Part shown: piece by piece, positions 1,990 to 23,038 of the stretch
How the letters are laid out: every line of letters starts with the position of its first letter
Position numbering within the stretch: the first letter of the stretch is position 1
IMG/VR virus record: IMGVR_UViG_3300044506_000026
Location: 1 to 24,510 of that record
Reading direction: 5' to 3' (one strand)
DNA from: a virus
Taxonomy: Duplodnaviria; Caudoviricetes
DNA: 24,510 nt
Notes under the pieces: generated by a model
Told to the model about the DNA's origin: nothing
Seen by the model: the letters and a program-made list of their open reading frames with translations, nothing else
Databases searched by the model: none
Position numbers and translations under genes: made by a program

Positions 1990-2703
1990 CTAGTAGGACG
2001 CCTCGCGGTACTTGGCAAGGTACTGGATTGCGGCGAGCATCCGCTCGGGGTCGTCCTTGAAATGGCCAAGCCCCTTATTGCAGCTGCTGCAGATCAAACC
2101 GCGTACCGCGCCGGTCTCATGGCAGTGATCAACGCAGATGCCCGTGCCGCGGACGGACCCATCCTTGTTGAGGTTCAGGACAAGGTGCAGCTCTATCCCG
2201 CAGATCTCGCACCGACCGTCCTGTTGTACCAGCCTCTCTTTGAACTCCTCGGGAGTCATCCCATAGTTCCACTGGCGCTTGTACGAGCGGACCTTCTCGC
2301 GGTTCGCGAGCGCCCACTTCCGGTTCGCAGCAAGGATCTTGTCTCGATCCTTGGTGTACCTCCGGCGGTAGTACTGCCTGAAACGTTCGGGGTCTGCCGC
2401 TCGCGCTTCACGAGCTCGGCGCGCGTTCTGTTCCTTGTGTCGATCCGATGACGCGCGCTTCTGCTCAAGGATCTTCTCGCGCTGCGGTCCTTCGCGGCGC
2501 GCCTTTCGGTTGGCCTTGTTCTTCTCCGATGCGGAGTACTTCCGATCGGCTTCGCGCTTGGCCTCGGGGTTGCGTAAGGCTCGCTCGCGGGCGGCAGCAA
2601 CGGCGCACGGCTTGCACCAGTACTGCCGCCCGTCCGGCGATTTGGCTGCCTTATGGAACTCGTCCAGCGGCTTCTCGATGCCGCACTTGGTGCATCGCTT
2701 CAC
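1990..2703 (-). CDS. Endonuclease VII-family (HNH) homing endonuclease, 237 aa
   Basis: GTG start gives MKRCTKCGIEKPLDEF...YWCKPC (Zn finger). C-terminal QDGRCEICG...VDHCHETGAVRGLICSSCNKGLGHFKDDP is the EndoVII signature. Lower GC than the flanks. Confidence 0.9.
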   Translation of the reverse strand: MKRCTKCGIEKPLDEFHKAAKSPDGRQYWCKPCAVAAARERALRNPEAKREADRKYSASEKNKANRKARREGPQREKILEQKRASSDRHKEQNARRAREARAADPERFRQYYRRRYTKDRDKILAANRKWALANREKVRSYKRQWNYGMTPEEFKERLVQQDGRCEICGIELHLVLNLNKDGSVRGTGICVDHCHETGAVRGLICSSCNKGLGHFKDDPERMLAAIQYLAKYREASY

Positions 2704-2709
2704 CCGCCT

Positions 2710-2739
2710 ATCATAACCGAGCTCCTGTCGGCATGTCAG
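2710..2739 (-). promoter_or_regulatory. Sigma70/HrdB-like promoter CTGACA-N18-TATGAT, leaderless EndoVII mRNA
   Basis: -35 at 2739-2734 overlaps the capsid stop codon. -10 at 2715-2710 lies 6 nt before the GTG. Confidence 0.6.
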
Positions 2740-4232
2740 CTGACGTTTTGGAGCGTGGCCATCGCGACCGGGGCGCGGTTCAGGAACGCGCCGACCGACC
2801 GGATTTCGAACTCCTTGCGGGGGCCGCCGCCGGCGGTGTTCGCGACGCGGGCGATGCCGTAGTCGAACTGGGCGGTGTCGCGGAGGGCCCTGTACTCGAG
2901 CACCGAGCTGATGTTCGCCTGGGGGAAGGGAACGCGGTCGGTGCGGGCGACGATGGTGCCCGGCGGCACGGAGACGTGGACCTCGATCGGCACGGTGACG
3001 CCGCCGGCGGGTGCGTTCACGATCTCGCCGACCCGGCCACCGGCGGTGACGGACACACGGCCCGAAGCGTCGGTGTTGAGGAAGGTGGTGGCCGAGCTCG
3101 CGCCGAGGATCAGGTTCGCGATCTCCTGGGCCTGCGAGGCGTTCACCATCAGCGCGGTCGGGGAGCACTTGACCTGCTGCCACAGCGGCAGGAACAGGTA
3201 CTGCTCGATCTCGGTGACCGTTCCACCGGTGAGGGTGAGGGCCGCGCCGTTCAGCGAGTTGTTGATCGACGGGTTGGCGGTGCCGGTGCCGGGCTGGACC
3301 CACTGGCCGGAGCCGTTGTAGTCGCCTGCGAGGGACGCGAGGAAGCCGTCGTAGTCGTTGGCGTTCGCGGAGCCGTTGTCGGCTGCGGAGTTGTAGGTCG
3401 GGACGGCGTTGGCGGTGCCCTTCCACGACGTGGACAGGTCCGGGACGGTCGTGCCGGTCGGCAGCGCGTTGTTGCTGGTGATCGTCGCGGTGATGGTGAC
3501 CGTGTTGGTGGTCGTGGTCGTGTAGTAGTACCAGGTGGTGCCGTTCGCGGAGTAGAACCAGTCGTAGCAGACCGCGCCGCGGATGCTGGTCACGGTCGCG
3601 GTGATGCTGTTCGCGGATCCGGAGCCGAACGTGGTGCTCGCCGACGCACCCTGCGAGTTGCCGGAGCCGTAGTAGTAGCCGGAGCCGGTGCGCGCTGCGA
3701 CGCCGACGTACGCGGTGACGGCGCCGATGGTGCCGCCGGTGGCGTGCTGGGTCAGGACGGGTGCGGCCGCGGCGGCGAGCGCGAACGACTGACCGCCGAC
3801 GAGCTTGCGGTCGTCCGCGATGAGGACCTGGTTGAGCACCTGAAACGTTGCGATCGCGTACGGGTCACCATAGCCCTTGGCCAGGTCGTAGGCGTCCTGG
3901 GTGACGAGGCCGGCGTACCCGGTGGGCTTGTACCGGGCCTGGAAGTCCTGCTCGAGGAACGAGGTCTCGTTGGCCGCGTAGTCGAAGCCCATCGCCGGGT
4001 CGGGCTGGCTGTTGGTGAGGTTCATGATCGCACGCCAGACCGCGTACGGGTTACCGTCGGGGCTCTGCTTGCGGGCGACGTGGTCGCGGAACGGGGTGAC
4101 GACCGGGACCAGGGAGACGAGCTCGGAGAGGTCGTAGCTGTAGATGCCGGTCGATTCGAGGATGCCGCTGGTCTGCGCCTTGCTGATCGCGGCGAGGGTC
4201 TCCTCGGTGATGGTGCTGAGCGGTGCGCTCAA
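2736..4232 (-). CDS. Major capsid protein (probable HK97 fold) with internal Thr-rich insertion, 498 aa
   Basis: AGGAGG then TTG at 4232; very strong codon bias; follows the protease and scaffold genes. N-terminal YSYDLSELVSLVPVVTPFRDHVAR is capsid-like. Confidence 0.8.
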   Translation of the reverse strand: MSAPLSTITEETLAAISKAQTSGILESTGIYSYDLSELVSLVPVVTPFRDHVARKQSPDGNPYAVWRAIMNLTNSQPDPAMGFDYAANETSFLEQDFQARYKPTGYAGLVTQDAYDLAKGYGDPYAIATFQVLNQVLIADDRKLVGGQSFALAAAAAPVLTQHATGGTIGAVTAYVGVAARTGSGYYYGSGNSQGASASTTFGSGSANSITATVTSIRGAVCYDWFYSANGTTWYYYTTTTTNTVTITATITSNNALPTGTTVPDLSTSWKGTANAVPTYNSAADNGSANANDYDGFLASLAGDYNGSGQWVQPGTGTANPSINNSLNGAALTLTGGTVTEIEQYLFLPLWQQVKCSPTALMVNASQAQEIANLILGASSATTFLNTDASGRVSVTAGGRVGEIVNAPAGGVTVPIEVHVSVPPGTIVARTDRVPFPQANISSVLEYRALRDTAQFDYGIARVANTAGGGPRKEFEIRSVGAFLNRAPVAMATLQNVS

Positions 4233-4255
4233 GGTGTGCCTCCTGGGCATGCGAA

Positions 4256-4309: not shown

Positions 4310-6127
4310 TCAGCGCCGCTGGTGGATCTCCTGGAGCTGGGCGATGGCGAGGCCCTGCAGTTCGAGTGCGGCCCGGTTCTGGGTGCCGGCGTCCTGGCCT
4401 CGGTAGAGCTCGGTCTTGAGCTCGCGGGCCTTGGCGACGTCGACGGGCGTGGCGCCTCGGTCCTGACCGCGCATCTGGTGTGCGGGCGGGACGGCTCCGT
4501 TGGTGAACACCTTCGGCTCGGCGGGCTGCTCCTCCAGCGCCTTGACCTGGCCCTTGAGCGTCGCGACGAGGTCCGCCAGTTCCACGATGGCGTCCGCCTG
4601 CTTGGCGAACTCCTCGCGCTGGGTGGCGCTGTACTCGTCGAGCGCGGTGGTGACCACGTTCAGGATGCTGCTCTTGAGAACGTCCGAGTTGGTGTCGTAC
4701 TGCTGCTTGGTGACGCCGTCGGGTACGGCGTCGGCGGGGGTCCCGGCCTCGGCCTGCGGCTGCGGGGTGAGGTCGGTGGTCTCGGGGGCACCGTCGTCGG
4801 TGCCGTCGGTGCCGGCGGGGGCGTCGTCCATGTCGTCGGCGTCCGCCTCGGCGTTCGCGACCGGGGTGACGTCGCCGGGGTCGACGATGCCGATGAGGCG
4901 GCCCTTCTGGTCATAGACGACGACCATCGGGGTCTTCTCACCGTCGGCCTTGGCGATGCCCATCTCGGGCTCCTCGCCGTGGGCGGCGGTGGTCTCGGCG
5001 GAGGTGGTGGGCTCGGGCATGCTGGTCTCCTTGTCATCGGTGACCGGCTGCGCGGCCTCCTTCTCGATGGGCGCCGTGGGCAGCGAGGTGAGGACCTTCT
5101 GCAGGGACTCGACGGCGCCGCGGATCGCGGCCTCGTTGGCGGCGGACAGGACCCGGCCGGCCTTGGCGATGTGCGCGAGGGCCTCGATCGTGTCGAGCGG
5201 CGCCAGGTCGAAGCCTCCCAGGGCCTTGCCGACGGCCTGCATCTCCTCGCCGCAGTCGGCCTCGGCCTGCTCGGCGACGGCGAACGGGGCGAGGACGGAG
5301 ATGGCGTAGTCGATCGCGCAGCACGCGTCCTGCAGGTCGAACGCCTTCATGGCGTCGTCCTCGTCGCCAGCTGCGGCTTCCAGCAGTTCGCGGTCGGCGA
5401 GCATGTCGATGGCGGCCTTCGCGCGGGCGAGGATGCTGGTCCACTTGCGTGCGGTGGCGGCGTCGACGGCTTCCCATGCGGGGGAGCCGGGGTCGGTGTC
5501 CATGCCCTGGTGGTCGCCGTCGGTCTCGGCGAGGGCGGTCATCGGGTCGAGGACGTCGTCCATGTCCATCTCCTTCGCCACGTCGCCCTTCAGCGAGCCG
5601 TCGGCGTTCCAGTTGTCCGGGATCTCGGACGAGGCGCCGAGGGCCTTGGCTCGTGCGATGACGTGCCGTCGGATCGCGTTGTGGTCTGCGCCGCCGCGGC
5701 CGACTGCGCGGATGGCCCGGTCGAGGTCTTCGCGGTCGGCGACCGGGTAGGATTCGTCGTCCATGGCCTGGCCGTTGGCGGCCATGCGGCGCAGGTCGTC
5801 GGCGTTGTACTTCGCCTTGACGAGCTGTTCGTACGTGGGCTCTACGGCGGCCTTGGCGACCTGCCGGGCAGCGGCCTCGTGGATAAGGCGGGCGATCGCG
5901 GCGGGGCTACCGGACATGGTCACCTTGTCCTCAGTCGACGGGGTGGGGTCGGCCTTCGCGATAAGGTCACGGACGAACGCGGGGTCCATCAGGCCGGCCT
6001 GCGAGTCCTGCTTCATCAGCAGAAACCCGGGTGCACCGTTCGCAGGCATCCCGACGAGGTCGACGCGAGGCACGTTGGCGTCCACCAGTTCCGTGAACTC
6101 GGTGTCGTCGCCGAGTACGTCCGTCAT
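4310..6127 (-). CDS. Capsid scaffold / protease-associated protein, 605 aa
   Basis: AAGGAG RBS and ATGA overlap with the upstream gene. N-terminal VDLVGMPANG motif, DUF6582-like YPVADREDLDRAIRAVGRG...IARAKALG segment, KAGRVLSAANE motif, acidic coiled-coil C-terminus. Confidence 0.8.
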   Translation of the reverse strand: MTDVLGDDTEFTELVDANVPRVDLVGMPANGAPGFLLMKQDSQAGLMDPAFVRDLIAKADPTPSTEDKVTMSGSPAAIARLIHEAAARQVAKAAVEPTYEQLVKAKYNADDLRRMAANGQAMDDESYPVADREDLDRAIRAVGRGGADHNAIRRHVIARAKALGASSEIPDNWNADGSLKGDVAKEMDMDDVLDPMTALAETDGDHQGMDTDPGSPAWEAVDAATARKWTSILARAKAAIDMLADRELLEAAAGDEDDAMKAFDLQDACCAIDYAISVLAPFAVAEQAEADCGEEMQAVGKALGGFDLAPLDTIEALAHIAKAGRVLSAANEAAIRGAVESLQKVLTSLPTAPIEKEAAQPVTDDKETSMPEPTTSAETTAAHGEEPEMGIAKADGEKTPMVVVYDQKGRLIGIVDPGDVTPVANAEADADDMDDAPAGTDGTDDGAPETTDLTPQPQAEAGTPADAVPDGVTKQQYDTNSDVLKSSILNVVTTALDEYSATQREEFAKQADAIVELADLVATLKGQVKALEEQPAEPKVFTNGAVPPAHQMRGQDRGATPVDVAKARELKTELYRGQDAGTQNRAALELQGLAIAQLQEIHQRR

Positions 6128-6501
6128 GTCTCGCTCCTTGGTCGGATCCGGCGTGCCACGCCTTGCGGGCTGAAGCCGTTGACGCGGCCGGACTTGACGA
6201 GCCGCCAGGCGGTTTCGTCGCAGATGCCGCCGATGAGCCAGTCGCCAGCCTTGATGACTGTGCCGTCGGGCTGTTCCCAGTCCGGGCCGCGGTAGATGTA
6301 GCTCTCGGTTACGGTCATGTGGCCGGTCGTACCGTCGGCGTGGAACAGGCCGACCTCCGCGCCGCCGGGCAGGAACGACCAGCACGCCTTCTCCAGCTCG
6401 GATGGGGTGAAGAAGTCCCGCCCGCCGTCTGCTCCCTTCGCGATCCGTGGATCCCGACCGGCCTGATAGGCCAGGCCGAGGACGAATCTCTGCTCGGGCA
6501 T
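6124..6501 (-). CDS. XkdF-like prohead serine protease, 125 aa
   Basis: VLGLAY...ELEKACWSF...GLFH...ESYIY...GDWL...W..VKSGRVNGFSPQG matches the XkdF pattern with His and Ser retained. AGGAGG RBS. Confidence 0.85.
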   Translation of the reverse strand: MPEQRFVLGLAYQAGRDPRIAKGADGGRDFFTPSELEKACWSFLPGGAEVGLFHADGTTGHMTVTESYIYRGPDWEQPDGTVIKAGDWLIGGICDETAWRLVKSGRVNGFSPQGVARRIRPRSET

Positions 6502-6510
6502 TGCCACCTC

Positions 6511-9500
6511 CTAGGCGGGCATCAGGGCACACCGGCAGTGCGGATGCTGTGGCGGGTAGGCGGGGCCGCCCGGGTAGGGCTGGCCGATCGGGATCGGCCC
6601 GGCGTCGGCGTTCGCCTGGCAGGCCGGGCAGACCTTGCGGTCCTGTTCGGTGACCCACCGGCCGTGCGTGATGAGCCGGGCCTGGTAGGCGCCGACGGCG
6701 GCTTGGCTGGACCCGCGGGTGATCTCAGTGAGCGCGACAGCGAGTGCCCGACCCGGGTCGGCAAGCGTGTCGACGAGGGTGTGGGCGATGGTGACGATGC
6801 TGTCGCCTGCGAGGACCCCGACGGCGAGTGCGCGGGCAAGGTCGGTGACACGAGCGTGGGCGATGCCTTGAGCGGTTTCGTCGGCCTGGTCGGTGAGTTC
6901 GACCAGACCGGTGGTGGCACCAAGTTGCTCGAGCTGCTCGCGGGCCGCGGCGGTGTCGCCGGGCTGCCAGTGGCCGGTGTCGGGGTTGGTGTGGTCGGCG
7001 GTGGCGATCGCCGCTGCGCTGCCGATCAGGAACGCGTCGGTGTACAGCGCCGTCAAGGCGTCGGCGATCGGCTGCGCGAGGTTGAGGCCTTGGGCGGCGA
7101 GCCACGCCGCGGCCGCCTCGACGACAGCCTTGCGGTCGGTCTGCTCCGGGTCGTGCTGGTTCAGGTAGGAGCGGACCAGGTCGGTTGCCTGCTGGACAGT
7201 GAAGGCCGTAGCGGTGGCAGCGGCGATGCGCGGCGCCCAGTGGTGGGCGGCGCGCATGTCCATCTGCCAGCCGTGCCAGGTGTCAGCGGCTGGCCCGTCG
7301 GCTTTTGGGCCGTCATCACCAGACTTCGCGAGCCCCGCGCCGGTGCAGCCGAAGGCTTCGAGGACGGTATCGATGTCAGCGATGAGCTCCGGCCTCACGG
7401 CAGGGTTCCCCGGTAGCTGCGCCGGGTCCCACCAGGCGATCGCCTCTACCTGGTCGCCGTCCGGGTCGTCCGGATTCGTGATCTCCCGACCGCCGTTGAC
7501 CGGCACGCAGTCCTCGGACGGAACCGTCCAGACGATGCCCTGGTAGATGCCGCTGGCCCACGTACCGCTCTGGACGCCCGGTGGCGGGATGCATCCTGTC
7601 TCCTCGGACCACTCCCGCCACGCGCCCATGAGCGGTGACTCGGTGCCTTCGAGATGGCCGCCAGGGAATTCCCAGCAGCCAGCGGCGGGATCGTCCGGGT
7701 CCAACGCCCGCTGCAGCATCAGCACCCGGCCCGTGTCCTCCGCGCGGACCGCGAGGCCGGCGACGGCGATCTCGCCGGCTGCCTTGCGGACTGCGGCTCG
7801 GCCGCCCTGGTTGAGACGCCGAGCGCGGACAGGGTCGACGGCCCGGAACTCGAAGTCGTGCCAGACGCCCTTCCGGCGACGGCCTTTGACGAAGGACCGG
7901 AACGCTGCCATCTCCGACTTCGCGAGCTGCGCCCGATCCTCGTCGTCCTCATCGTCCTCGTCCTCGCGCTGGCCGACGAGGTCGTAGGAGGTGACGCCCG
8001 TCGCCGTGGTGATCCCGGCGGCTGGCGCGCCGTCCTTCGCTACCGGAGCGCCCGTGGCGTCCGACGGCTGCATGACGGGCTGCGGCGGCGGGGCCAGGGG
8101 CATCGCGGACGCGCCGAACTCCTGCTCCGCGAGCGACATCACCTTGATCGGCGGGTTCGGAAGGACACCTTCCACACCACCGAACACGGTGTGCGGCAGC
8201 GGCTCCCCTGGTTCGGGAGCGGCGGTCGCCTCATCGACCGGGCCGGCGACCGCGTACAGCGACGACAGCGGGATCGGGCCGGAGCGGGTGGTGTAGATGA
8301 AGCGCGGCATCGGCTGGCCATCGGGCTCGGGCAGGCCGTAGCGCATCTCGCGGATGTCACTGCCGCCGATGACTCCGAGCTCCATGTAGATCTTGTCGGC
8401 CTGGGCCTGCTGCAGCCGGTCGGCCTGCTCCTCGCCGAGGTCGAACGCGAACTGCAAGGGCAGCCCGAGGTCGTCCTGGAGGAAGGCGGTGAGGATCGTC
8501 TGAATGTGCCGGATCAGCGGGAGATCGCCGACGCGGTGCTGAACGTCGGCCTGTGACTCGCCCGAGGACCGGTTGACGTTCTCGGTGAAACCGAGGTCGC
8601 TGGGCACGACGTGGTACGCCGCGCAGGTCTTCCGCATCAGGAACAAGCTGAAGTGGTCAGAGAAGTCCTTCTCGTTGGACCACTCGATACCCGACCCGCC
8701 AGGCAGCCACTTGATCTGCGACTTGACGGCCTGGTCGCCGAGCATGAAAGCGTCCCAGTATTCCTGGAACTGCTCGATCTGCTGCGGCGTCCACGTCTCT
8801 GGCGCCGATGCGAACGCGGCCGGAATGTTCCCCTCGGTGAACCGCTCCAAGAAATACTGCTGGAACCGCAGATCCGTGTTGGCGTTGAGAAGAATCGACT
8901 CCAACGGGGCGTGCCCGTACGGGGAATTCGCGCGCATCCGGAACGGCACGTACACGAGGTCGCCGCGGGTCAGCCAGTTCCACGGCAGACCGTTGACGTA
9001 CTGCACGTACGCCTCGGCCGGCTCCTCAGGGGAGTTACCCCAGTAGTCGAGAAGCGGCGCGATGCTCGTACCGTCAACCACGCGCAGGCCGACCGCGTCA
9101 CCGCGGCGGTTCCGCAGCCGGTACAGGGTGCCGGCGTCGTAGGCGAGGATGTCGTACAGCCACTGGGCGAGCCACACCGAGAACGGCTGCTGCCGGTCGG
9201 GCTTGGCGAGGGCCTTCATGCCGACCTGGATGTGGTCGGTGGTGTCGCCGCTGTGGCCCTTCGCGGCGATCAACGACCAGTCGAGGGACCGGATCGAGTC
9301 GATGCGGTGCCAGATGCACATCTGGGCGACGTCGTAGGCCTCGACGAGGCCGCGCAGGGTTTCGAACGCGACGCGCTCGTGGGTGCGGGGCCGGGTTGCG
9401 ATGTTGTAGCCGGTGACGAAGTTCTGGGACCGGGGGGTGCGGGAGAACCCGTCGTAGGGGCCGATTGGCTCGCCGGGGGAGAACGCGTTGGCGGGGGTCA

Positions 9501-9591
9501 TGCCGGAGGCGATCTCGCCCTGGCGCATCGCCGCAGGTTCGGTGTTGCCGAAGACCTTGCGGAGGTTGGCGAGGCGGTCTCGGACACCCAT
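6511..9591 (-). CDS. Portal protein fused to a Nudix hydrolase and a MuF/SPP1 gp7-like minor head domain, 1026 aa
   Basis: N-terminal ~430 aa are portal-like (YGHAPLE, F.EGNIP) and follow terL. Nudix box GHLEGTESPLMGAWREWSEETGC at 7659-7591. C-terminal W..EQDRKVCPAC...PPQHPHCRC is the MuF motif. Confidence 0.9.
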   Translation of the reverse strand: MGVRDRLANLRKVFGNTEPAAMRQGEIASGMTPANAFSPGEPIGPYDGFSRTPRSQNFVTGYNIATRPRTHERVAFETLRGLVEAYDVAQMCIWHRIDSIRSLDWSLIAAKGHSGDTTDHIQVGMKALAKPDRQQPFSVWLAQWLYDILAYDAGTLYRLRNRRGDAVGLRVVDGTSIAPLLDYWGNSPEEPAEAYVQYVNGLPWNWLTRGDLVYVPFRMRANSPYGHAPLESILLNANTDLRFQQYFLERFTEGNIPAAFASAPETWTPQQIEQFQEYWDAFMLGDQAVKSQIKWLPGGSGIEWSNEKDFSDHFSLFLMRKTCAAYHVVPSDLGFTENVNRSSGESQADVQHRVGDLPLIRHIQTILTAFLQDDLGLPLQFAFDLGEEQADRLQQAQADKIYMELGVIGGSDIREMRYGLPEPDGQPMPRFIYTTRSGPIPLSSLYAVAGPVDEATAAPEPGEPLPHTVFGGVEGVLPNPPIKVMSLAEQEFGASAMPLAPPPQPVMQPSDATGAPVAKDGAPAAGITTATGVTSYDLVGQREDEDDEDDEDRAQLAKSEMAAFRSFVKGRRRKGVWHDFEFRAVDPVRARRLNQGGRAAVRKAAGEIAVAGLAVRAEDTGRVLMLQRALDPDDPAAGCWEFPGGHLEGTESPLMGAWREWSEETGCIPPPGVQSGTWASGIYQGIVWTVPSEDCVPVNGGREITNPDDPDGDQVEAIAWWDPAQLPGNPAVRPELIADIDTVLEAFGCTGAGLAKSGDDGPKADGPAADTWHGWQMDMRAAHHWAPRIAAATATAFTVQQATDLVRSYLNQHDPEQTDRKAVVEAAAAWLAAQGLNLAQPIADALTALYTDAFLIGSAAAIATADHTNPDTGHWQPGDTAAAREQLEQLGATTGLVELTDQADETAQGIAHARVTDLARALAVGVLAGDSIVTIAHTLVDTLADPGRALAVALTEITRGSSQAAVGAYQARLITHGRWVTEQDRKVCPACQANADAGPIPIGQPYPGGPAYPPQHPHCRCALMPA

Positions 9592-9612
9592 GCGGCGCGA
9601 CCCCCTCTGCGG

Positions 9613-11304
9613 CTATCGGTGGTTCCGGTAGGCGGCGTCGCGGGCGCGTTTGCGTGCTGCGGCGGGGTCTTCGGTCTGTGGTTCGTCTGGCGTCGCGGTG
9701 GGTTCGACGGCTGTCGTCGGCGCGGCCTGCTGGGCGGCGGCCTCGGCCTTGCGGCGTACCCAGTTGATCCAGGCGGCGGCTCCGTTGCCGTCGAGGAGCA
9801 TGTGGGCGAGGGCCTGGCTGGTCGCATCGACCTGGTCGTCGTGGCTGCCGTGGGGGAACGCGGCGGCCTCGTCGATGAGCGGGTCCGGGTCGGCCAGGGC
9901 GATCCCTGTTTCGGGCAGGAAGACGTTGCCGGCCTCGATCAGCGGGGCGACCGCGTTGGCGCGGGCGTATTTCGACTCGGTCGGGGTCACGGCGATGATC
10001 CCCGGGATCTTCGACTTCAGGGTGTCGATGATCGCCGTGCCGTTGGCCTTGTCCTCGACGAGCTTGGTCGTGGCCTGCGGCCAGCGGGCGGCCAGCGCGG
10101 TGAACGCCGCGAGGGTGTCAGTGAAGCTGAGGCGCTTGTGGACCTGGTCGAGGAGGTACACGTTGGCGCCGCGCCGCGCCCACACCTGCCCGACCACGTA
10201 GTCACTGCTCTTGGTGTCCTTGAACGCCATGTCCCACGACATGACCAGCTCGTCGGCCTCGTCTACGAGGTACGCGTCTGGCACGGTCGGGTGCTGCGAC
10301 CACAGCGGCGTGAGGTAGCGACGCCACCACGGCCGCTGCCACACGTTTCCCGCATCGGGCGACGGACGCCCTTGGTAGAGGGCGTTGAACACGCGCGTGC
10401 CGGCCTGGATGCGGATCGCTTCCCACTCCTTGGCGGTGCGGCCACGGGCCGAGACGAGCCACTCGCCGGGCTGCCGGCCGAGCGCGTCGCTCTCGCCCTT
10501 GTTCGGGTCGTGGTCGGCGAGCGCGGGGATGTTGACGACCTGCCACCGGTGGCCGTCCTCGGCGGCGAGGAACCGGCCTGCGATGTCGTCCTCGTGCCAG
10601 CGGGTGAGGATGCAGATCACCGGGGCGCCGGGGGCGAGTCGGGTGGAGCCGACGGCCTGCCACCACGACCAGACCCGCTCGCGGTAGTAGGCGGACGCGG
10701 CCTGTTCCTTGTCGGCGAACGGGTCGTCGATGACCAGGGCGTCCAGCGGCCGGCCGGTGAGGCCGGAGCCGATGCCGACGCAGACGATGCCGCCGCGGTG
10801 CCCTGCGAGTTGCCAGCGTTTCGCGGAGCCGTAGTCGCGGGCGATGCGCAGGCCGATGTCGAAGGTGCCCTCGTCGCCGTCGTTGGAGACGATCCAGTTA
10901 CGGACTTCTCGGCCGAACGTTTCGGCGAGGGACTGGGAGTAGGAGACGATGCCGAGTCGGAGTTCGGGGTTGCGGGTGAGCGCCCACAGGGAGCCGACCT
11001 TGGTGACCCTGGAGCTTTTCCCTTCCTGTGGCGGCAGGGAGATGATCAGGCGGGCGCCGGGGGTGGTGTACGCCCGCATGATCTCCTGGTCGACCAGGTC
11101 GAGTGCGACGGTCTGTACGGTGCTGCCGTCGACGAGGGCCGCGAGGTCGCCGGGGGTGGTCCACTTCGGCCCGCGGGCGCGGCGGGCTTCCCGCCGCTGC
11201 TCGATCTCAGCGTGGAGATCCCTCAGCTGCTTCATCATCGCCAGCTTCGTCGCCAAAAGCGGCGAGCTGCTGTTCAGCGTCGACGATTGCCTGGTTGAGG
11301 GCAT
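9613..11304 (-). CDS. terL: Terminase large subunit (start uncertain, ~11235-11328)
   Basis: Walker A PPQEGKS, Walker B LVIDDP, coupling motif LTRWHEDD, nuclease motifs SWDMAFKD and HDDQVDA. Confidence 0.93.
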   Translation of the reverse strand: MPSTRQSSTLNSSSPLLATKLAMMKQLRDLHAEIEQRREARRARGPKWTTPGDLAALVDGSTVQTVALDLVDQEIMRAYTTPGARLIISLPPQEGKSSRVTKVGSLWALTRNPELRLGIVSYSQSLAETFGREVRNWIVSNDGDEGTFDIGLRIARDYGSAKRWQLAGHRGGIVCVGIGSGLTGRPLDALVIDDPFADKEQAASAYYRERVWSWWQAVGSTRLAPGAPVICILTRWHEDDIAGRFLAAEDGHRWQVVNIPALADHDPNKGESDALGRQPGEWLVSARGRTAKEWEAIRIQAGTRVFNALYQGRPSPDAGNVWQRPWWRRYLTPLWSQHPTVPDAYLVDEADELVMSWDMAFKDTKSSDYVVGQVWARRGANVYLLDQVHKRLSFTDTLAAFTALAARWPQATTKLVEDKANGTAIIDTLKSKIPGIIAVTPTESKYARANAVAPLIEAGNVFLPETGIALADPDPLIDEAAAFPHGSHDDQVDATSQALAHMLLDGNGAAAWINWVRRKAEAAAQQAAPTTAVEPTATPDEPQTEDPAAARKRARDAAYRNHR

Positions 11305-11743
11305 CGATCGTGAACACCCCCTCGACACGTTGCGGGGAGTCGAGCCCGCGGAGTTTGGCGACCTGCGCCGCGATCTTCAGGAGCCGGTCGGCGGCGGCGA
11401 GGTTCGGCCCGTGGTCAAGGAGGGGTTCCTGCGTGACCGGGTGGGTTGCGGTCTTTCCGGTCGTGACCGAGACATGGAAGTGGGGCTCGCGGAAGATCCG
11501 GTGGATCTCCTCGGCGAGGTACTCCAGTTCGCCGAGCTGTTCTTCGCGGTACACCTCGACGCTGGCGTCCTGCCGGGCGATGGACTCTTCGAGGGCTCGG
11601 GTGAAGTCCTTGCTGGCGGCGGTTGGGGACTTGTAGCCGAGCTCCTCGTAGATCTCCGAGTAGGGGATCTTCTTCCTGCGGTACTGGACGAGCTTGGCGC
11701 GGCGTGCGGCGATGGCTGCTCGTTCGGCTCGGGAGACTGGCAT
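11207..11743 (-). CDS. terS: Terminase small subunit (putative), 178 aa
   Basis: N-terminal HTH (YSEIYEELGYKSPTAASKDF) and helical body ending AKLRGLDSP. Directly upstream of and overlapping terL. Confidence 0.75.
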   Translation of the reverse strand: MPVSRAERAAIAARRAKLVQYRRKKIPYSEIYEELGYKSPTAASKDFTRALEESIARQDASVEVYREEQLGELEYLAEEIHRIFREPHFHVSVTTGKTATHPVTQEPLLDHGPNLAAADRLLKIAAQVAKLRGLDSPQRVEGVFTIDALNQAIVDAEQQLAAFGDEAGDDEAAEGSPR

Positions 11744-11962: not shown

Positions 11963-12304
11963 TCAGAGCTCGGGGTGTGCGCCGATTCGGGTGCCGTCGG
12001 CGCGGTGCCACTCGATGTGGTCGAGGACGGTGCTGTACTCGTGGGGACCGGTGCGCTCGGTGCGGAACACGGGTTCGGCGGTGACAGCTTCGGCGGGGGC
12101 GCCGGGGATGTGCACGTGGAGCTCGGAGGCCAGCCAGGGCAGTTCGGTTCGTCCGTAGATGCGGGTTCCGGGGCCGAGGAGGTCGAGGCTTTCGCGGAAC
12201 AGCGGCTCGGCTTGGGTGGAGACGCGGATGCGGACGGTGCGCCAGAACTCGGCGCGGGAGTTTCGCTTCGCGTTGATCCGGGCCTGGCCGGATGTCGGGA
12301 TCAC
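11963..12304 (-). CDS. Hypothetical protein, 113 aa
   Basis: GTGA overlap with the upstream stop; codon bias. Confidence 0.6.
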   Translation of the reverse strand: MIPTSGQARINAKRNSRAEFWRTVRIRVSTQAEPLFRESLDLLGPGTRIYGRTELPWLASELHVHIPGAPAEAVTAEPVFRTERTGPHEYSTVLDHIEWHRADGTRIGAHPEL

Positions 12305-12471
12305 TGGGTGTCGCCGTTGCAGCGCTTGCAAGGCAGCTTGCGGTGATGGGTGTCGCAGGTGTCGTTCCGAGCGGGCTCGTACCGGGGCGCGGGCCCGTTG
12401 TAGAACGCGTACTGACGGGCGAGCTTCCGGGATACGGCGCGCCGCTGGGATCGGGTGGGCAGGACGAGCAT
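12301..12471 (-). CDS. Small Cys/His protein, 56 aa
   Basis: GGAG RBS; C-terminal CDTHHRKLPCKRC. Confidence 0.55.
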   Translation of the reverse strand: MLVLPTRSQRRAVSRKLARQYAFYNGPAPRYEPARNDTCDTHHRKLPCKRCNGDTQ

Positions 12472-12494
12472 GAGGGTGCTCCGAGGGTGAGGGG

Positions 12495-12719
12495 TCAGCT
12501 GAGGGTGGCTGAGGGAGGGTCGGGGATGAACTCGGCCGGTACCGGCTGGGTGAGGCGGTCGGTGCGGCGTGCTCGGCATGGTGGTCCGTCGTGCCACCAG
12601 CGGGTCTCGCCGAGGAACGCTCGGCTGCCGCAGCGGGAGCAGGTGCCGGGGATCGGGTCCCAGTCGGGTTCGGGGGTGAACGGCGCGTCGAGAGCGCGGT
12701 GCGGGTTGTCCAGGGTCAC
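12495..12719 (-). CDS. Small Zn-finger-like protein, 74 aa
   Basis: GTGA overlap with the upstream stop; CSRCG...WWHDGPPC. Confidence 0.55.
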   Translation of the reverse strand: MTLDNPHRALDAPFTPEPDWDPIPGTCSRCGSRAFLGETRWWHDGPPCRARRTDRLTQPVPAEFIPDPPSATLS

Positions 12720-15307: not shown

Positions 15308-15856
15308 TCAGCGTGCGGCGGCTCGCTCGAGCAGGCGGTGGACATCGTGCCTCGTCGTGGTCGGCAGGTCGTTGAACGAGTCGACGGGCATCGGCTGGCC
15401 GAGGTAGCCGAGTTCGTTGCCGAGTCGCTGGCGGGCGCGGCGGATGGTCTCGGCGGTGCCGTACCCGGCGGCGTGGACGCGAAGCTGCGCGCCGAGGATG
15501 CACGCGGCGCCGCAGCCGGTCCACAGGACGCCCTGTGCCCAGCCGTAGTGGGCGATGTAGCGGGCGGTGAGCTGCAGGTGTTCGGCGGGGGCGACGTCGA
15601 GGACGGGGCGGCGGTGCCGGAGCCGGTCGATCAGGGTGAGCTGCGGCAGCGGGTGCTCAGCGTTCCACGGCTGAAGCACGCTGCCGTGCGGATTCGGCGG
15701 CGGCATGCTGGCGAGGATCCGGGCGAGATCGATCGGGCCCGGCCCGGCCGCTGTGGGGGCGACCGAGCGCAGGTAGTCCTCGATCTCGGCGACCAGGAGC
15801 AGCCCGGCAGCGTCCAGGTCGAAGCTCGCTGCGGTGAGCACGGCGGCGGCCATCAC
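15308..15856 (-). CDS. DUF6197-like protein, 182 aa
   Basis: ARYIAHYGWAQG...ACILGA...FND motif; start overlaps the traB stop. Confidence 0.65.
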   Translation of the reverse strand: MMAAAVLTAASFDLDAAGLLLVAEIEDYLRSVAPTAAGPGPIDLARILASMPPPNPHGSVLQPWNAEHPLPQLTLIDRLRHRRPVLDVAPAEHLQLTARYIAHYGWAQGVLWTGCGAACILGAQLRVHAAGYGTAETIRRARQRLGNELGYLGQPMPVDSFNDLPTTTRHDVHRLLERAAAR

Positions 15857-17784
15857 GCGTCCCTGGTCTCATCGGCGTCGGGCAGGTAGAACTGCTCCGT
15901 TCGGCCAGCCTTCCGCACGAGGACACCGCGCTGCACCCACACGTCCATGGCCCGGCGGGCGGTGTCGCGGGATGCGAACGGGCCGTTCTCGACCAGGTCG
16001 TCCTTCGTGGCCGCGCCGTTGGTCTCACACAGGCGGCAGAACACGCGGTACAGGTCCGGCCACTCGTCCCGAGGAACGGTGGTGCCGTCCGGGTACACCG
16101 GCGCGGGCGGCCCGGCGGGCTTCGGCGGGGTCGTCTGGCGGAGCAGGTGGAGGGTGCCGCCCTCCGGCGCGAACCGACCGACCGGGAGGACGGGCTTCCT
16201 GACGGCGTGCAGGTGCGCCACGTCCGCCGCGATGTCCCTGTCGCTGACCCACTCGGCCCGGCACCGCGGCGGCTCGATCTGCGGCATCTCCGGCGACTGC
16301 AGGAAGAACTCGCCCGGCCGGGTCAGCTTCTCCGGAACGAACCCGGCACCGCGACAGCCCTTGCCGAACACGAACTCGGCGTGACCCGCCTCGCCCGCCC
16401 GTGTGGAGATCCGGTTGGCGTAGTTCCCCCGCATGTCGGTGTTCCCGCCGAACACCCTGGCCGAGGGCTGCTGGGTGGCGGCGATGAAGTGGATGGCGAG
16501 GAAGCGGAGGACTGCGAGCCCCGACTCGTACAGGGTGGTGACCGCTGGCTCGGGCGGCAGCGCGTTCTCCTTGTCGAGCTTGCGGTACTCGGCTTCTTCC
16601 TTGCGGAGTTGCTCGTCCTGGCGGATCAGCTCGCCGAGCTCGTCGGTGATGACGTAGATCGAGGTTCCGTGCTTACCGGGGATCCACTTGCGGACGGGTT
16701 CGCGGCCGGCGGTGAGTTCGGTGAGGGAGAGCTGCTGGAGGTGGGCGCCACGCCGGTCGCCTTCGGCTTTGATCGCTCGGAGCAGGTCGCGTGCTTCTTC
16801 GGGGGTGCTGGCGATCTTCTTGAACAGTGGCGCCCAGGGGCCGAGTTCGGGTGTTCCCGGCTTGAGGTCGATGCCGTACAGCTCGACGTGGTCCTTGCGG
16901 ATGAGCTTCTTGATGATCAGGTTGAGGATGCCGGACTTGCCCCAGTCGGCGGCACCGGCGATGAGGGTGTGCCGGTACAGGAGGGTGAGGTGGACGGGCT
17001 GGCCGTTCTCGTCCCAGCCGATTCGGATGGGGTCGGCGATGTCCTTGCTGGTGTCGTCCTGGTAGGGGATGGCGTTGTCGTAGAACGGTCCGGCCGCCGT
17101 CACGGTGATGCTGGCGCCCTCGGGCGCCTCGATGGCGTCGGGCTCCGCAGTGCTGAGCACGCTGGGCGCCACAGCGGCGGTGATGGGATTGTGGGACGTG
17201 CGGTGCCGGATGAGCCACGGCACGTACGCGCCGTACGCCAGGGCCGTGCTCACCGCGGTGGCGGTCAGAGACATCGCGCCGGGGCCGCCTCCGGCTGCGG
17301 CGGCGATGTCGCCGAACGCCACGGCCAGGGCGGCGCCACCGGCGGTGACTCTGTCGTGCTTCCGCTCGAGCCCGTATGCGGCTACTGCTGCGCCGGCCAC
17401 GGCGAGGGCGGTGCATGCGCCGGTGGCGTAGTGGCTGGCCGTGGTGAAGTGCTGCCACCAGCCGAGCGCGGTGAGGCTGCTGGTAGTGATGGCGGGGGCG
17501 AGTTCGACCTTGTAGCGGACGACCAGGCTGACGGCGCGTCCGGCCACGGCGACGCAGCTGGTCAGGAAGCCGTGGGCGACGCGGCGCGGAGGCTTGGCGG
17601 GGAGGTAAACGGTGTCGTTGATCGCTGATGCCGACGGCGTGTAGTCGGCCGGAATCTGATCGGCGACCTGCGGGAACGAGTCCACGGGGGCCGTCGTCGT
17701 CGGCATCGTCGGCGTGATCGTTGCGGAGGCCGCCCGCTGCGGGCGAGGCAGGAACGTGATGGGTCCGATGTAGTCCTGGGCCAC
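15853..17784 (-). CDS. traB: TraB-like FtsK/SpoIIIE conjugative DNA translocase, 643 aa
   Basis: N-terminal TM segments, Walker A HTLIAGAADWGKS, IDLKPG, Walker B YVITDE, R...IHFIAATQQP, C-terminal winged-helix-like domain. AAGGAG precedes GTG 17784. Confidence 0.85.
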   Translation of the reverse strand: MAQDYIGPITFLPRPQRAASATITPTMPTTTAPVDSFPQVADQIPADYTPSASAINDTVYLPAKPPRRVAHGFLTSCVAVAGRAVSLVVRYKVELAPAITTSSLTALGWWQHFTTASHYATGACTALAVAGAAVAAYGLERKHDRVTAGGAALAVAFGDIAAAAGGGPGAMSLTATAVSTALAYGAYVPWLIRHRTSHNPITAAVAPSVLSTAEPDAIEAPEGASITVTAAGPFYDNAIPYQDDTSKDIADPIRIGWDENGQPVHLTLLYRHTLIAGAADWGKSGILNLIIKKLIRKDHVELYGIDLKPGTPELGPWAPLFKKIASTPEEARDLLRAIKAEGDRRGAHLQQLSLTELTAGREPVRKWIPGKHGTSIYVITDELGELIRQDEQLRKEEAEYRKLDKENALPPEPAVTTLYESGLAVLRFLAIHFIAATQQPSARVFGGNTDMRGNYANRISTRAGEAGHAEFVFGKGCRGAGFVPEKLTRPGEFFLQSPEMPQIEPPRCRAEWVSDRDIAADVAHLHAVRKPVLPVGRFAPEGGTLHLLRQTTPPKPAGPPAPVYPDGTTVPRDEWPDLYRVFCRLCETNGAATKDDLVENGPFASRDTARRAMDVWVQRGVLVRKAGRTEQFYLPDADETRDA

Positions 17785-17898
17785 GGGGAAGCATCTCCTT
17801 CGAAAAGTCAGCAGGTCAAAGAGGGTGCGGAACTGAGTGCTTGCGGCGGCCACCCCAGGTGGGTGCGGGGGCTGGGGTGTCACCGGCGGGCCGTCAGG

Positions 17899-19077
17899 TC
17901 AGCTGTCGGTGCCGGTGAGGGGCCGCACGTTGTCGGAGCCGAGGGCTGCGAGGCTGGGGTCGGCCTTCTCGATCTCGGCGCGGATCTTGTTGGCGAACTG
18001 ACGCGAGCCGTACGGCGACTTGATCGCCTTCAGGCGGGCGACCATCTCGGACTCCAGGGGGCGCCTTCCGAGCTCTGTGTAGAGCGCCTTGATGGCGTCC
18101 CTCGCGGCGTCCCTCGGGGCGCTCTTGGGGCGCTTTGTGGCGGCCTGTCGTGGCGCCTTCGGGGCGGCCGGTGTGGCGTCGGCGGGGCGCGTCTGAGGCG
18201 CCTCGGTGGCGCTCTGTGTGGCGGTCTGAGGGCGCCTCACGGCGTCTTCCGTGGCGCCTTGCGGGGCGCCCTCCGTGGCGAGCTGGGGCGCCATGCCGGG
18301 CTCGTGCGTAGCGCTCTCGTGGCGCTCCAGATGGGCTGCCCGTGGCGCTTCGAGGGCGCCCTCGATGGCGGTTGTGGGGCGCTCTGCGATGGCGTTCTGA
18401 AGCGCCATCGGAGCGAGCTCTCCCATGCGCAGCAGGGCGCGCTCGCGGATCGGAGCCCGCCACCGCCATCGCCAGCCGTGGCGCTCACGGAGCTCGGCTC
18501 GCGCCATGACCCGGCCGCGCTCACGGGAGAGGGCAGTGCCGTAGGAGGTCTCCTCCCACAGGACCATCCGGCGCCACAGGCGACTCGTGCTCAAGGGGGC
18601 GAGGAGGAACCGGGAGCGGCGGATCCGCTCCATGCGCCTGCCCGTGGCGTGTCCGATGAGGACGCGGTAGACGTGCCCGGCGATCTCGGAGCAGACGACC
18701 CAGACGAGAGGGAGGGCGCCGTGGGCGAGCTTGGCGCCGATCCCGTGGCCGGCCTGGATGTTGAGGTAGATCGTGACGAAGGTGAGGAGGAAAGGGACGG
18801 CGCGGACCCAGGCGAGCTCCATGTCCATCCGGATCAGGAGGAGGTGGGCGATGGTGAAACCGGGGATGGCCAGGTCGATGGCGATCGGCAGGAGCTGCGG
18901 GGTCTGGAAGCCCCAAGCGGCGGCCTTGGTGGAGACGGACTGGAAGGAGACGAACAGGCCGATGGTGCCCACGGCGAGGAGCAGGGTGACAGTGACGTAG
19001 AGGAGTTTGATCTCGCGGGGGGAGAGCTTGGGGGGCTGCTTGAGGGGGGTCTGAGCGGCGCTCAGGGTGTCGCTCAT
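17899..19077 (-). CDS. DUF2637 / SpdB2-like plasmid-spreading membrane protein, 392 aa
   Basis: Four TM helices (SFQSVSTKAAAWG...LLPIAIDLAI...IYLNI), then RMERIRRSRFLLAPLSTSRLWRRMVLWEETSY, a repeat-rich linker and a C-terminal HTH-like segment. Confidence 0.8.
   Translation of the reverse strand: MSDTLSAAQTPLKQPPKLSPREIKLLYVTVTLLLAVGTIGLFVSFQSVSTKAAAWGFQTPQLLPIAIDLAIPGFTIAHLLLIRMDMELAWVRAVPFLLTFVTIYLNIQAGHGIGAKLAHGALPLVWVVCSEIAGHVYRVLIGHATGRRMERIRRSRFLLAPLSTSRLWRRMVLWEETSYGTALSRERGRVMARAELRERHGWRWRWRAPIRERALLRMGELAPMALQNAIAERPTTAIEGALEAPRAAHLERHESATHEPGMAPQLATEGAPQGATEDAVRRPQTATQSATEAPQTRPADATPAAPKAPRQAATKRPKSAPRDAARDAIKALYTELGRRPLESEMVARLKAIKSPYGSRQFANKIRAEIEKADPSLAALGSDNVRPLTGTDS
18090..18400. 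repeat. About 24 phased copies of (G/A)(T/G)GGCG(C), period 10-13 bp
   Basis: GGCG cores at 18094, 106, 118, 129, 139, 152, 163, 175, 186, 197, 208, 220, 231, 241, 253, 265, 277, 287, 321, 344, 355, 367, 378 and 391. Confidence 0.8.
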
Positions 19078-19100
19078 GGCTTGGGCCTCTTTCGGGGTGG

Positions 19101-19436
19101 TTAGGCGGCGGTGGTGTAGCGGATGTTGGTGAGGTGCTGGGTGGCGGTGTTGAGGAGCCACAGCAGCGCGGTGGCGATAGTCCGGATGGCCCAGGCGGTG
19201 GCGCGGAGTGTGGCGGCGATCGTGTGGCGGAGGATCAGGTTGGTGGCGGCCAGGGTGTGCGGGGTGTGCCAGCGCAGGGCCCAGCTGCCGCCGGTGGTGA
19301 CGGCGAGGTAGGTGAGGACTGCGGCGATGACGGGGGTTGCCAGGCCGGGTGTCCAGGTGAAGGCGAGGGTGGCGAGGCTGATCGCGGTGGTGGTGAGGGC
19401 TTGGAGTTCGGGGTGGGTGGCGGTGCGTCGGCTCAT
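19101..19436 (-). CDS. Small membrane protein (Spd-like), 111 aa
   Basis: GGAGG RBS, hydrophobic helices, directly upstream of the DUF2637 gene. Confidence 0.7.
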   Translation of the reverse strand: MSRRTATHPELQALTTTAISLATLAFTWTPGLATPVIAAVLTYLAVTTGGSWALRWHTPHTLAATNLILRHTIAATLRATAWAIRTIATALLWLLNTATQHLTNIRYTTAA

Positions 19437-19526
19437 GGGATGGTTCCTCCCTTCGGGTGCTGGTCGGGTGGTCTGAGTGCCTGCGGCTGCCGCACAGAGC
19501 TGGGGCTGTGCGGCGCCGTACGGCGA

Positions 19527-19793
19527 TCAGATGCCGTTGAACAGCTGGTTGTAGAGGTCGAGTCGGCCGACAGCGTGCTTGGCAATGGCGTAGGCCTTGA
19601 CCTGGGCGGTGAGCTGGTCCTGCAGAGCCGGGTCGCGGTGGGCGTCGGTGAAGCTGACGGTGAAGATCCGGGCCGCGTCGGGGTCGATGCGGCAGAGCTG
19701 GGCGAGGTTCGCGTCGCACTGGGCGGCCTGGCCGGCTTCGAAGCGTTCCTCGACGCGGCTGCGGTTGATCCGCTCACGCAGCACGGTGAACAT
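19527..19793 (-). CDS. Hypothetical protein, 88 aa
   Basis: TGATG coupling with the upstream gene; MFTVLRERINRSR... Confidence 0.65.
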   Translation of the reverse strand: MFTVLRERINRSRVEERFEAGQAAQCDANLAQLCRIDPDAARIFTVSFTDAHRDPALQDQLTAQVKAYAIAKHAVGRLDLYNQLFNGI

Positions 19794-22243: not shown

Positions 22244-23038
22244 ATGACCGACAACGCTCCAGGCGAAGAGGACAAGAGGCCTCTCCTCGAAAGGCAGAAG
22301 GGAGCGTGGCCGCAGCACGAGCTGCTGGCAAGCTACCTTCGGGACGGCATCCTGTCCGGCGACTACCCGCCAGGTAGCGCCCTGCCGTCGACCCGAATCC
22401 TCAAGCAGAAGTTCGGCGTAGCTCCCCAGACCATCAAGAACGCCAACGACCAGCTCGCAGAGGAAGGCCTCGTCCTCAGCCACAAGGGAAAGGGCATCAT
22501 CGTCCGGGACCACCGGGTGAGGACTATGGTCCCGGCCGCATACAAGGAGCCGGCTGCTCCCGGCGAGTCGTACCGGTGGATCTCCGAGGCCGAGAAGCGC
22601 GGCCTCGCAGCGCAGAGCACTCTGCTCGCGGTCGAGGAAGTCGCCCCTCCGGCTGACGTCGCGGCGTCTCTAGGTCTGCCCAAGGGTGGGGTTGCCGTGA
22701 TGCGGGCTCAGATCCTGTCGCTGGATGGCGAGCCAGCCGAACTCGTGAAGTCCTACTACCCGGTTGAGCTTGCTCGAGGCACGGCTATCTCGGAGCAGCG
22801 GAGGATCAAGGGCGGCACCCCGCGGCTCCTGGCCGACATGGGCTACCCGCCGGTGCGTTGCGTCGACACCGTCTCAGCTCGCATCCCGACGCCTGAAGAG
22901 GTGGTCGCGCTCAATGCGCCGACGAAGCTTCCCGTGTTGCGGACGCTCCGGGTGGTTCACAGCGCCAACGACCGAGTCATCGAGGTCACGGTGATGGCGA
23001 AGGCCGGCCACCTCTACGAGCTCCGGTACGAGTTCTAG
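22244..23038 (+). CDS. GntR/HutC-family repressor (KorSA/TraR-like), 264 aa
   Basis: LRDGILSGDYPPGSALPSTRILKQKFGVAPQTIKNA..QLAEEGLV..HKGKG winged HTH plus a UTRA domain. Confidence 0.92.
   Translation: MTDNAPGEEDKRPLLERQKGAWPQHELLASYLRDGILSGDYPPGSALPSTRILKQKFGVAPQTIKNANDQLAEEGLVLSHKGKGIIVRDHRVRTMVPAAYKEPAAPGESYRWISEAEKRGLAAQSTLLAVEEVAPPADVAASLGLPKGGVAVMRAQILSLDGEPAELVKSYYPVELARGTAISEQRRIKGGTPRLLADMGYPPVRCVDTVSARIPTPEEVVALNAPTKLPVLRTLRVVHSANDRVIEVTVMAKAGHLYELRYEF

Follow-up and report, generated by a model that had tools for sequence, protein, structure and literature searches.

A probable −1 ribosomal slip at the portal/MuF boundary of portal fusion genes in tailed phages

Described frameshifts and the portal–MuF fusion

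A close described counterpart of the arrangement reported here is the −1 frameshift of dnaX, in which a slippery heptamer, a 5′ Shine–Dalgarno (SD)-like element, a 3′ stem-loop and an early −1 stop that removes the C-terminal part give rise to two products, tau and gamma, with a common ring-forming N-terminus (PMC5009743). In Escherichia coli the efficiency of this event is 50% at the site A AAA AAG, which is read with a single Lys tRNA, and the layout is reversed in some bacteria (PMC5009743). The product of dnaX is a cellular clamp loader, whereas the gene considered here is a phage portal gene and its sites are C CCA AAA or G GGA AAA. The lambda-type G/GT frameshift is likewise a −1 slip that has been conserved in a morphogenesis gene of tailed phages, and it fixes the ratio of a short to an extended product; these tail chaperones, however, are absent from the virion and the slip always extends (PMC5009743, PMC10885494), whereas here a head structural gene is affected, the slip would mostly truncate and both layouts occur in one family. 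Chaperone genes of the G/GT type immediately precede the tape measure gene, while the present gene lies between those for terminase and protease. Major capsid or tail proteins are extended by a −1 slip in Lactobacillus phage A2, T3/T7 and Listeria phages A118/A500, giving two virion proteins from one gene that are mixed in one structure, as is predicted here, but the added parts are Ig-like or similar surface domains and none of these cases concerns a portal or MuF (PMC5009743).

The MuF protein of SPP1, gp7, is present in 1–2 copies per capsid, bound to the portal (PMC5576092), and supports infection (PMC6316719). MuF adjoins the portal in SPP1 as it does here and enters the head in few copies, but gp6 and gp7 are separate genes with a copy number set by binding (PMC6316719, PMC5576092), whereas the present gene is a fusion. 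A portal–MuF frameshift is not reported in the accessible portions of PMC6316719 and PMC5576092 ('frameshift' is absent from that of the latter), the word 'portal' is absent from the first 300,000 characters of PMC5009743 and from the accessible text of PMC10885494, and those portions of PMC7302621, PMC7260188, PMC7911831, PMC4378225 and PMC2628397 contain no portal-gene frameshift. None was found by a literature search largely limited to open-access papers. The portal slip is very probably real and ordinary in mechanism and, as far as this literature goes, new in gene and in its proposed purpose.

The stretch of DNA that we analysed (the window), a virus record of 24.5 kb, has a GC content of ~69%. 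Its head module lies on the minus strand and comprises the large terminase gene (9613..11328), the portal–Nudix–MuF fusion gene (6511..9591), a small prohead protease gene directly downstream of the fusion (6124..6507; PHROG 3017), a scaffold-like ORF and the major capsid protein gene (2736..4250). The fusion gene is an ORF of 1026 aa (~111 kDa) within the packaging module that holds both the portal domain (8344..9327, minus strand; Pfam PF04860, aa 89–416; PHROG 2662) and the MuF part (6514..7278, minus strand), which runs from W772 to the end, matches PF04233 at aa 918–1024 and would be confined to the unshifted product. Between them lies a Nudix domain (7402..7761, minus strand; PF00293, aa 611–730) with a Nudix box that is complete in sequence; among the matches listed in a fold search the Nudix part alone was matched, its model resembling MutT/RppH-type structures with an E value of about 1e-4. 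Unlike the MuF polymorphic toxins (Jamet 2017), in which the toxin is C-terminal to MuF, the protein ends with MuF and the Nudix domain is N-terminal to it. The same architecture and gene order are found in the cultured Arthrobacter phages Sonali and Mufasa8, whose gp3 proteins have ~44% identity to the window in the portal; both carry C CCA AAA followed 9 codons later by a −1 stop, and both are annotated as a plain CDS with no frameshift (Sonali gp3 as 'portal and MuF-like fusion protein'). The predicted −1 products have 748 aa in Sonali (ending NPK-SAYPSVLEG) and 749 aa in Mufasa8 (ending FPK-STYPSLVEG), as compared to 995 and 1000 aa for the unshifted proteins. The window gene and Sonali gp3 are homologous (44% over the portal part), and the window protease and capsid proteins have 51% and 40% identity to Sonali gp5 and gp7, annotated as capsid maturation protease and major capsid protein, respectively.

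Outside these genes, the major capsid gene is followed by an overlapping ORF (1990–3426, minus strand) that encodes zinc fingers and an endonuclease VII domain; the actual start of this ORF probably lies after 2736. Upstream of the packaging module are FtsK/SpoIIIE and DUF2637 genes (15853–19719, minus strand), which are characteristic of conjugative elements in actinomycetes, and a GntR/UTRA regulator is found at 22244–23038 (plus strand).

The proposed slip site, its stop and its candidate stimulators

A sequence-only reading of the window had proposed a −1 frameshift at the junction of Nudix and MuF, and its description of the site was accurate. The heptamer C CCA AAA (7303..7309, minus strand) is in frame in the 1026-aa ORF (9591..6511), consisting of the third base of Gly761 followed by Pro762 and Lys763, and the next base is G. 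Its two codons are rare in the gene, as had been stated (CCA provides 8/79 Pro codons and AAA 2/19 Lys codons). Of three heptamers in the fusion gene, C CCA AAA is the only in-frame X XXY YYZ with A or U at Y; the same seven bases reportedly form the slip site of Lactobacillus phage A2. The −1 frame would read PKSRRASR and then end at a TGA (7283..7285, minus strand), 6 codons past the slip site, for a predicted product of 769 aa and about 84 kDa that agrees with the proposed short form of ~770 aa. An AlphaFold model of residues 545–1026 places the slip site between Nudix and MuF in a linker with pLDDT <50 that is predicted to be disordered. Neither a terminator nor a sigma-70 promoter was found at the slip site in a search of 6000–10000.

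Both suggested stimulators were also located; in bacterial tandem −1 slips the 3′ structure is expected 5–9 nt past the heptamer and the SD-like element, which is optional, 9–14 nt ahead of it. The predicted 3′ stimulator is an 8-bp stem-loop (7266..7294, minus strand) that starts 8 nt past the heptamer, with GCCAGCCG (7294–7287) pairing with CGGCTGGC (7273–7266); the 3′ arm is formed by conserved W-x-G-W codons and the 5′ arm lies in the linker, a pairing also seen in a few relatives. The stem has an energy of −16.3 kcal/mol (z −2.9 against shuffles) and is unlikely by chance, as 8-bp Watson–Crick stems at such spacing arise in 0.2% of 3000 synonymous recodings; across 1010 in-frame positions of the fusion gene the figure is 0.6%. 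Its pair probability is 0.76–0.98 in folds of 40–83 nt and 0 in a 120-nt fold; it competes with other folds in longer windows and is not the minimum-energy structure at 63 or 131 nt. A second strong hairpin (7257–7226, minus strand; 7 + 6 bp) is present 9 nt past the first stem. The possible 5′ stimulator, an SD-like GGTGAT, occupies 7315..7320 (minus strand), 5 nt before the heptamer or 9 nt if the count starts where the AGGAGG register ends; the anti-SD was taken from a 16S gene in L216.

Relatives were collected by scanning viral, genome and metagenome collections with the whole protein or its portal part as query, two of these scans contributing the best 80 of 234 and the best 80 of 121 matches, and four phage records were added, giving at least 215 loci with a portal match. 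The MuF start could be placed in 141 loci, which were dereplicated at 90% junction similarity to 89, the window included; the remaining portal loci (incomplete, without MuF or with a more distant MuF) were inspected separately. A heptamer was scored if it was in frame and at most 120 nt before the MuF start. The 89 loci are related to one another and the counts that follow overstate their independence. A scan with the Sonali portal as query matched Sonali alone, and a tblastn search of phage records with the MuF part as query produced no match. One contig of run X1 spans 7241–8524 with zero differences to the window, and is not independent as this run is possibly the source sample.

An in-frame heptamer was present in 81/89 loci (76 with C CCA AAA and 5 with G GGA AAA) and in 29 of the 31 clusters formed at 80% portal identity. 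Outside the junction of the same genes, CCA AAA encodes 2/102 Pro-Lys pairs, one being the site of L129, and GGA AAA encodes 0/190 Gly-Lys pairs, while 76 of the 78 Pro-Lys pairs in junction linkers are C CCA AAA and 2 are encoded otherwise. The heptamer opens with the wobble base of a codon that, across the loci, specifies 14 different amino acids, yet this base is always C before CCA and G before GGA. The switch from C CCA AAA to G GGA AAA, which needs two changes on the tree, alters the amino acid but leaves the sequence slippery. The base after the heptamer is G in 77/81 loci as compared to ~47% after other Lys codons. The synonymous positions, together with the alternative heptamers G GGA AAA and C CCT TTC (the latter in a distant pair of loci), indicate selection on the RNA beyond what the protein needs.

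In the 72 heptamer loci with MuF in frame, the −1 stop comes after a median of 4 codons, as compared to 64 following synonymous recoding and 60 at other positions. This stop falls within 10 codons in 62/72 of these loci, whereas the synonymous null has a mean of 9.2 and a maximum of 21 loci (500 runs) and the positional control is 12.7%. There is no such excess in the +1 frame (3/72), and a +1 slip at AAA G was rejected on this ground and through the absence of any heptamer locus with MuF in +1.

Computed folds show a stem of at least 6 bp at a spacer of 3–8 in 42/72 in-frame loci versus 19% of control positions, leaving 30/72 with no 6-bp stem. The excess of structure peaks right after the slip site, with 50/72 loci below their own null, and is modest: z averages −0.73 at 30 nt and −0.42 at 45 nt. 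One hairpin register is common to 22 loci, in 4 of which a C-G to U-A double change is compensatory and alters two amino acids. The window lacks this commonest form, and relatives use other hairpins. SD-like runs occur in register in a minority of loci, 13 times at 9 nt versus 3.4 expected and 6 times at 12 nt versus 1.7 (81 loci), and the SD-like duplex is stronger than the null in 57/72 loci, although these signals could reflect Gly codon choice. In the proposed check of synonymous-site conservation CCCAAAA is kept, but the window's own 8-bp stem and the exact GGTGAT were not found conserved as sequence among relatives, GGTGAT occurring within 20 nt upstream of the heptamer in the window only. 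Homologues encoding Pro-Lys as CCG or CCC with AAG and having no stem had been named as evidence against a frameshift; what homologues carry is C CCA AAA, a near −1 stop and a hairpin.

Flipped layouts and the distribution of the site

The strongest evidence for a slip is provided by relatives whose MuF lies solely in the −1 frame. In 9/81 heptamer loci the portal frame stops 9–27 codons past the heptamer and MuF continues in −1, with no start codon in the MuF frame of 5/9. These nine layouts need 8 changes on the portal tree, a quick tree with long branches for three rows, and 6 of the changes are forced by well-supported branches. Among 401 genomes from the family to which G001 belongs, 10 contained the portal. 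Of the 7 bacterial genomes from this set that we examined, 4 have MuF confined to −1 and preceded by C CCA AAA; the other three have MuF in frame with a heptamer, two of them repeating junctions already counted. All four −1 MuF copies extend 261 aa from the site with no indels and no stops, and they differ by up to ~22% of bases with third positions the commonest in 6/6 pairwise comparisons. A distant pair, L205/L206, has the same layout via C CCT TTC. With MuF present in the −1 frame alone, such phages have no route to this protein other than a −1 event at the site. Assembly errors or pseudogenes are an unlikely source of flipped loci because all 13 are −1, no frame change occurs inside MuF in any of the 89 loci, and the four genome copies have diverged with the frame kept. 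The proposed truncation would apply to the window and to the 72 in-frame loci with their −1 stop, while some relatives would gain the long form by slipping. Given such a slip, genes of both layouts are misannotated, as one product is missed or MuF is called a separate or broken gene.

The site had been assigned to a Nudix/MuF junction, which is correct for its position, but it belongs to the boundary of portal and MuF. A Nudix-specific role was rejected as 19/81 site-bearing loci have no Nudix motif before the site and the heptamer of L129 precedes an insert. Most of MuF and the site are both lost in L012 and L031; the site is kept without Nudix and gone from these two loci, and hence tracks MuF. 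It is also kept before more distant MuF types (L099, L107, L108, L124, L165, L189 and L208), and in L209 it lies ahead of a different, Nudix-like stretch. Among the 8/89 loci without a junction heptamer, L009 carries one that shares the frame of MuF and follows a break, in L129 it comes 772 nt earlier, before an insert, and six (L045–L048, L076 and L204) have MuF in frame and no heptamer. There is also no A/U heptamer at the junction of the portal fusions of Microbacterium cluster EB (3/3 examined), in which MuF was undetected by Pfam in the three proteins, or in the portal–MuF fusion of Brevundimonas phage Polewnik; EA3, EA5 and EA8 records are annotated as protease–MuF and not portal–MuF fusions. 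Universality of the site is thus not supported, and its absence from six of 89 loci and from four unrelated portal–MuF fusions means that it is not obligatory. The EB and Polewnik fusions suggest that a portal can tolerate MuF on all of its subunits.

Several coding regions in this set are interrupted. The Nudix stretch is broken at two spots: in the N-terminal part of L084, L088, L174, L182, L187, L192 and L199 a stop comes soon past 'QRA(L/V)' and is followed by foreign DNA, and in the C-terminal part the break is past 'DRV.DR.GR', with an inserted HNH-like ORF in L002 and L175 and resumption in the −1 frame with no insert in L009. These stretches may be a split gene, an intron or a homing target. 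Insertions of ~1.1–1.2 kb, possibly introns, split the portal coding region of L019 (4310–5503) and L036 (5840–6931). Two distant loci with no heptamer, L207 (near 8214) and L210 (near 3714), have a stop ~48 codons into MuF and a +1 continuation at nearly the same place, and may represent a second type of recoding or a split gene.

Mechanism, purpose and rival explanations

Heptamer, −1 stop and hairpin conservation, together with relatives having MuF in −1 only, support the −1 frameshift reading, and we assign a probability of roughly 0.87 to a tandem −1 ribosomal slip at C CCA AAA that is helped by a 3′ hairpin and sometimes by an SD-like element. Ribosomes would slip back one base at C CCA AAA before MuF, with tRNA-Pro and tRNA-Lys leaving CCA AAA to re-pair on CCC AAA, as expected from known −1 mechanics, while the ribosome is stalled by the 3′ hairpin and perhaps also by the SD-like GGTGAT. 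One gene would in this way yield a 769-aa portal–Nudix protein and a 1026-aa portal–Nudix–MuF protein, and with this mix MuF would probably be carried by only some of the twelve portal subunits. Because both products keep the portal domain, mixed rings with fewer than twelve copies of MuF are predicted, and it is reasonably likely that the two products co-assemble in the portal ring and that slip frequency sets the amount of MuF entering the head. Such a slip could reconcile the low copy number of MuF, a protein that aids DNA entry in SPP1, with its fusion to a ring of twelve subunits.

For MuF to be scarce in the in-frame layout, the majority of ribosomes would have to slip, more than the 50% measured for E. 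coli dnaX; either slip efficiency is very high in this layout or the MuF ratio is loose. One tentative extension, which we consider rather improbable as a whole, is that the number of MuF subunits in mixed rings is dialled by a slip wired either way, with stimulators retuned at each flip and MuF kept scarce. Loci with MuF in frame, such as the window, would then have strong signals and a slip by most ribosomes, and loci that reach MuF only by slipping would have weak signals; the shorter, shifted protein would be the main portal and the product of the annotated full-length ORF the minor one. The 30-nt fold past the site is stronger in in-frame than in −1 loci (−12.5 versus −9.4 kcal/mol, p 0.014, n 72 versus 9), but support is thin, as the 45-nt fold does not differ (p 0.27), the best hairpin is borderline (p 0.054) and −1 loci show no weakening of the SD-like signal. 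Product, efficiency and purpose are all directly testable in the cultured Sonali and Mufasa8, with flipped layouts as built-in comparisons.

The rival that survives best, although we think it less probable than a role in the ring, accepts the slip and gives it another purpose: MuF would be cut off by the prohead protease or act as a free protein, and the slip would merely lower MuF synthesis, for example limiting a DNA-binding protein in the cell, or would provide a MuF-free portal that nucleates assembly. A Lys followed by Ala, Gly, Ser or Val sits 2–6 residues before the slip site in 72/81 loci, with like motifs at other domain borders, and the protease gene is directly downstream of the fusion; in addition, the layout flips freely and is sometimes lost, suggesting a loose ratio. 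However, the whole portal domain is in both products, so both should enter the ring, SPP1 gp7 enters the head through the portal in few copies (PMC6316719), and cleavage after assembly is compatible with the ring explanation too. In the window the motif ahead of the site is an Ala-Lys-Ser (7321..7329, minus strand), a candidate cut site, and Lys-Ala-type motifs in this place are a possible target of the prohead protease. Whether MuF and Nudix are later cut free at such motifs is close to an even question, with the balance slightly against. Motifs of a hydrophobic residue, any residue, Lys and Ala or a small residue (VAK, LAK, IAK) are frequent at domain borders of the portal fusion (6511–9591, minus strand) and occur throughout the scaffold-like protein (4310–6100, minus strand), and are candidate prohead-protease sites.

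Explanations that dispense with a working slip fare much worse. Pro-Lys could be kept for protein reasons, with rare codons pausing the ribosome for inter-domain folding, as the site is at a domain boundary and CCA and AAA are rare; but a pause leaves the fixed wobble base, the switch to G GGA AAA, the excess of −1 and not +1 stops and the 13 loci with MuF reachable by −1 only unexplained, and we regard it as very improbable. Similarly remote is the idea that the family slips while the window's site is a nearly silent relic: its lack of the commonest hairpin form and the competition between its stem and other folds would fit, but the window keeps the heptamer, the following G and a nearby −1 stop, along with an 8-bp stem of its own that few recodings produce and the sole exact GGTGAT. 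Least probable of all is slippage of RNA polymerase, which by adding a base would cause the same frame change and is the route of Thermus dnaX (PMC5009743), as the run is of four A's only, its phase to the frame is fixed in 81/81 loci and the hairpin is at a ribosomal spacing.

A further candidate site was seen elsewhere in the Sonali genome (L212). Gene 13 (12051–12548), upstream of the tape measure gene, contains an in-frame C CCT TTT after which the −1 frame is open for 84 codons, and is likely to be an unannotated tail chaperone frameshift.
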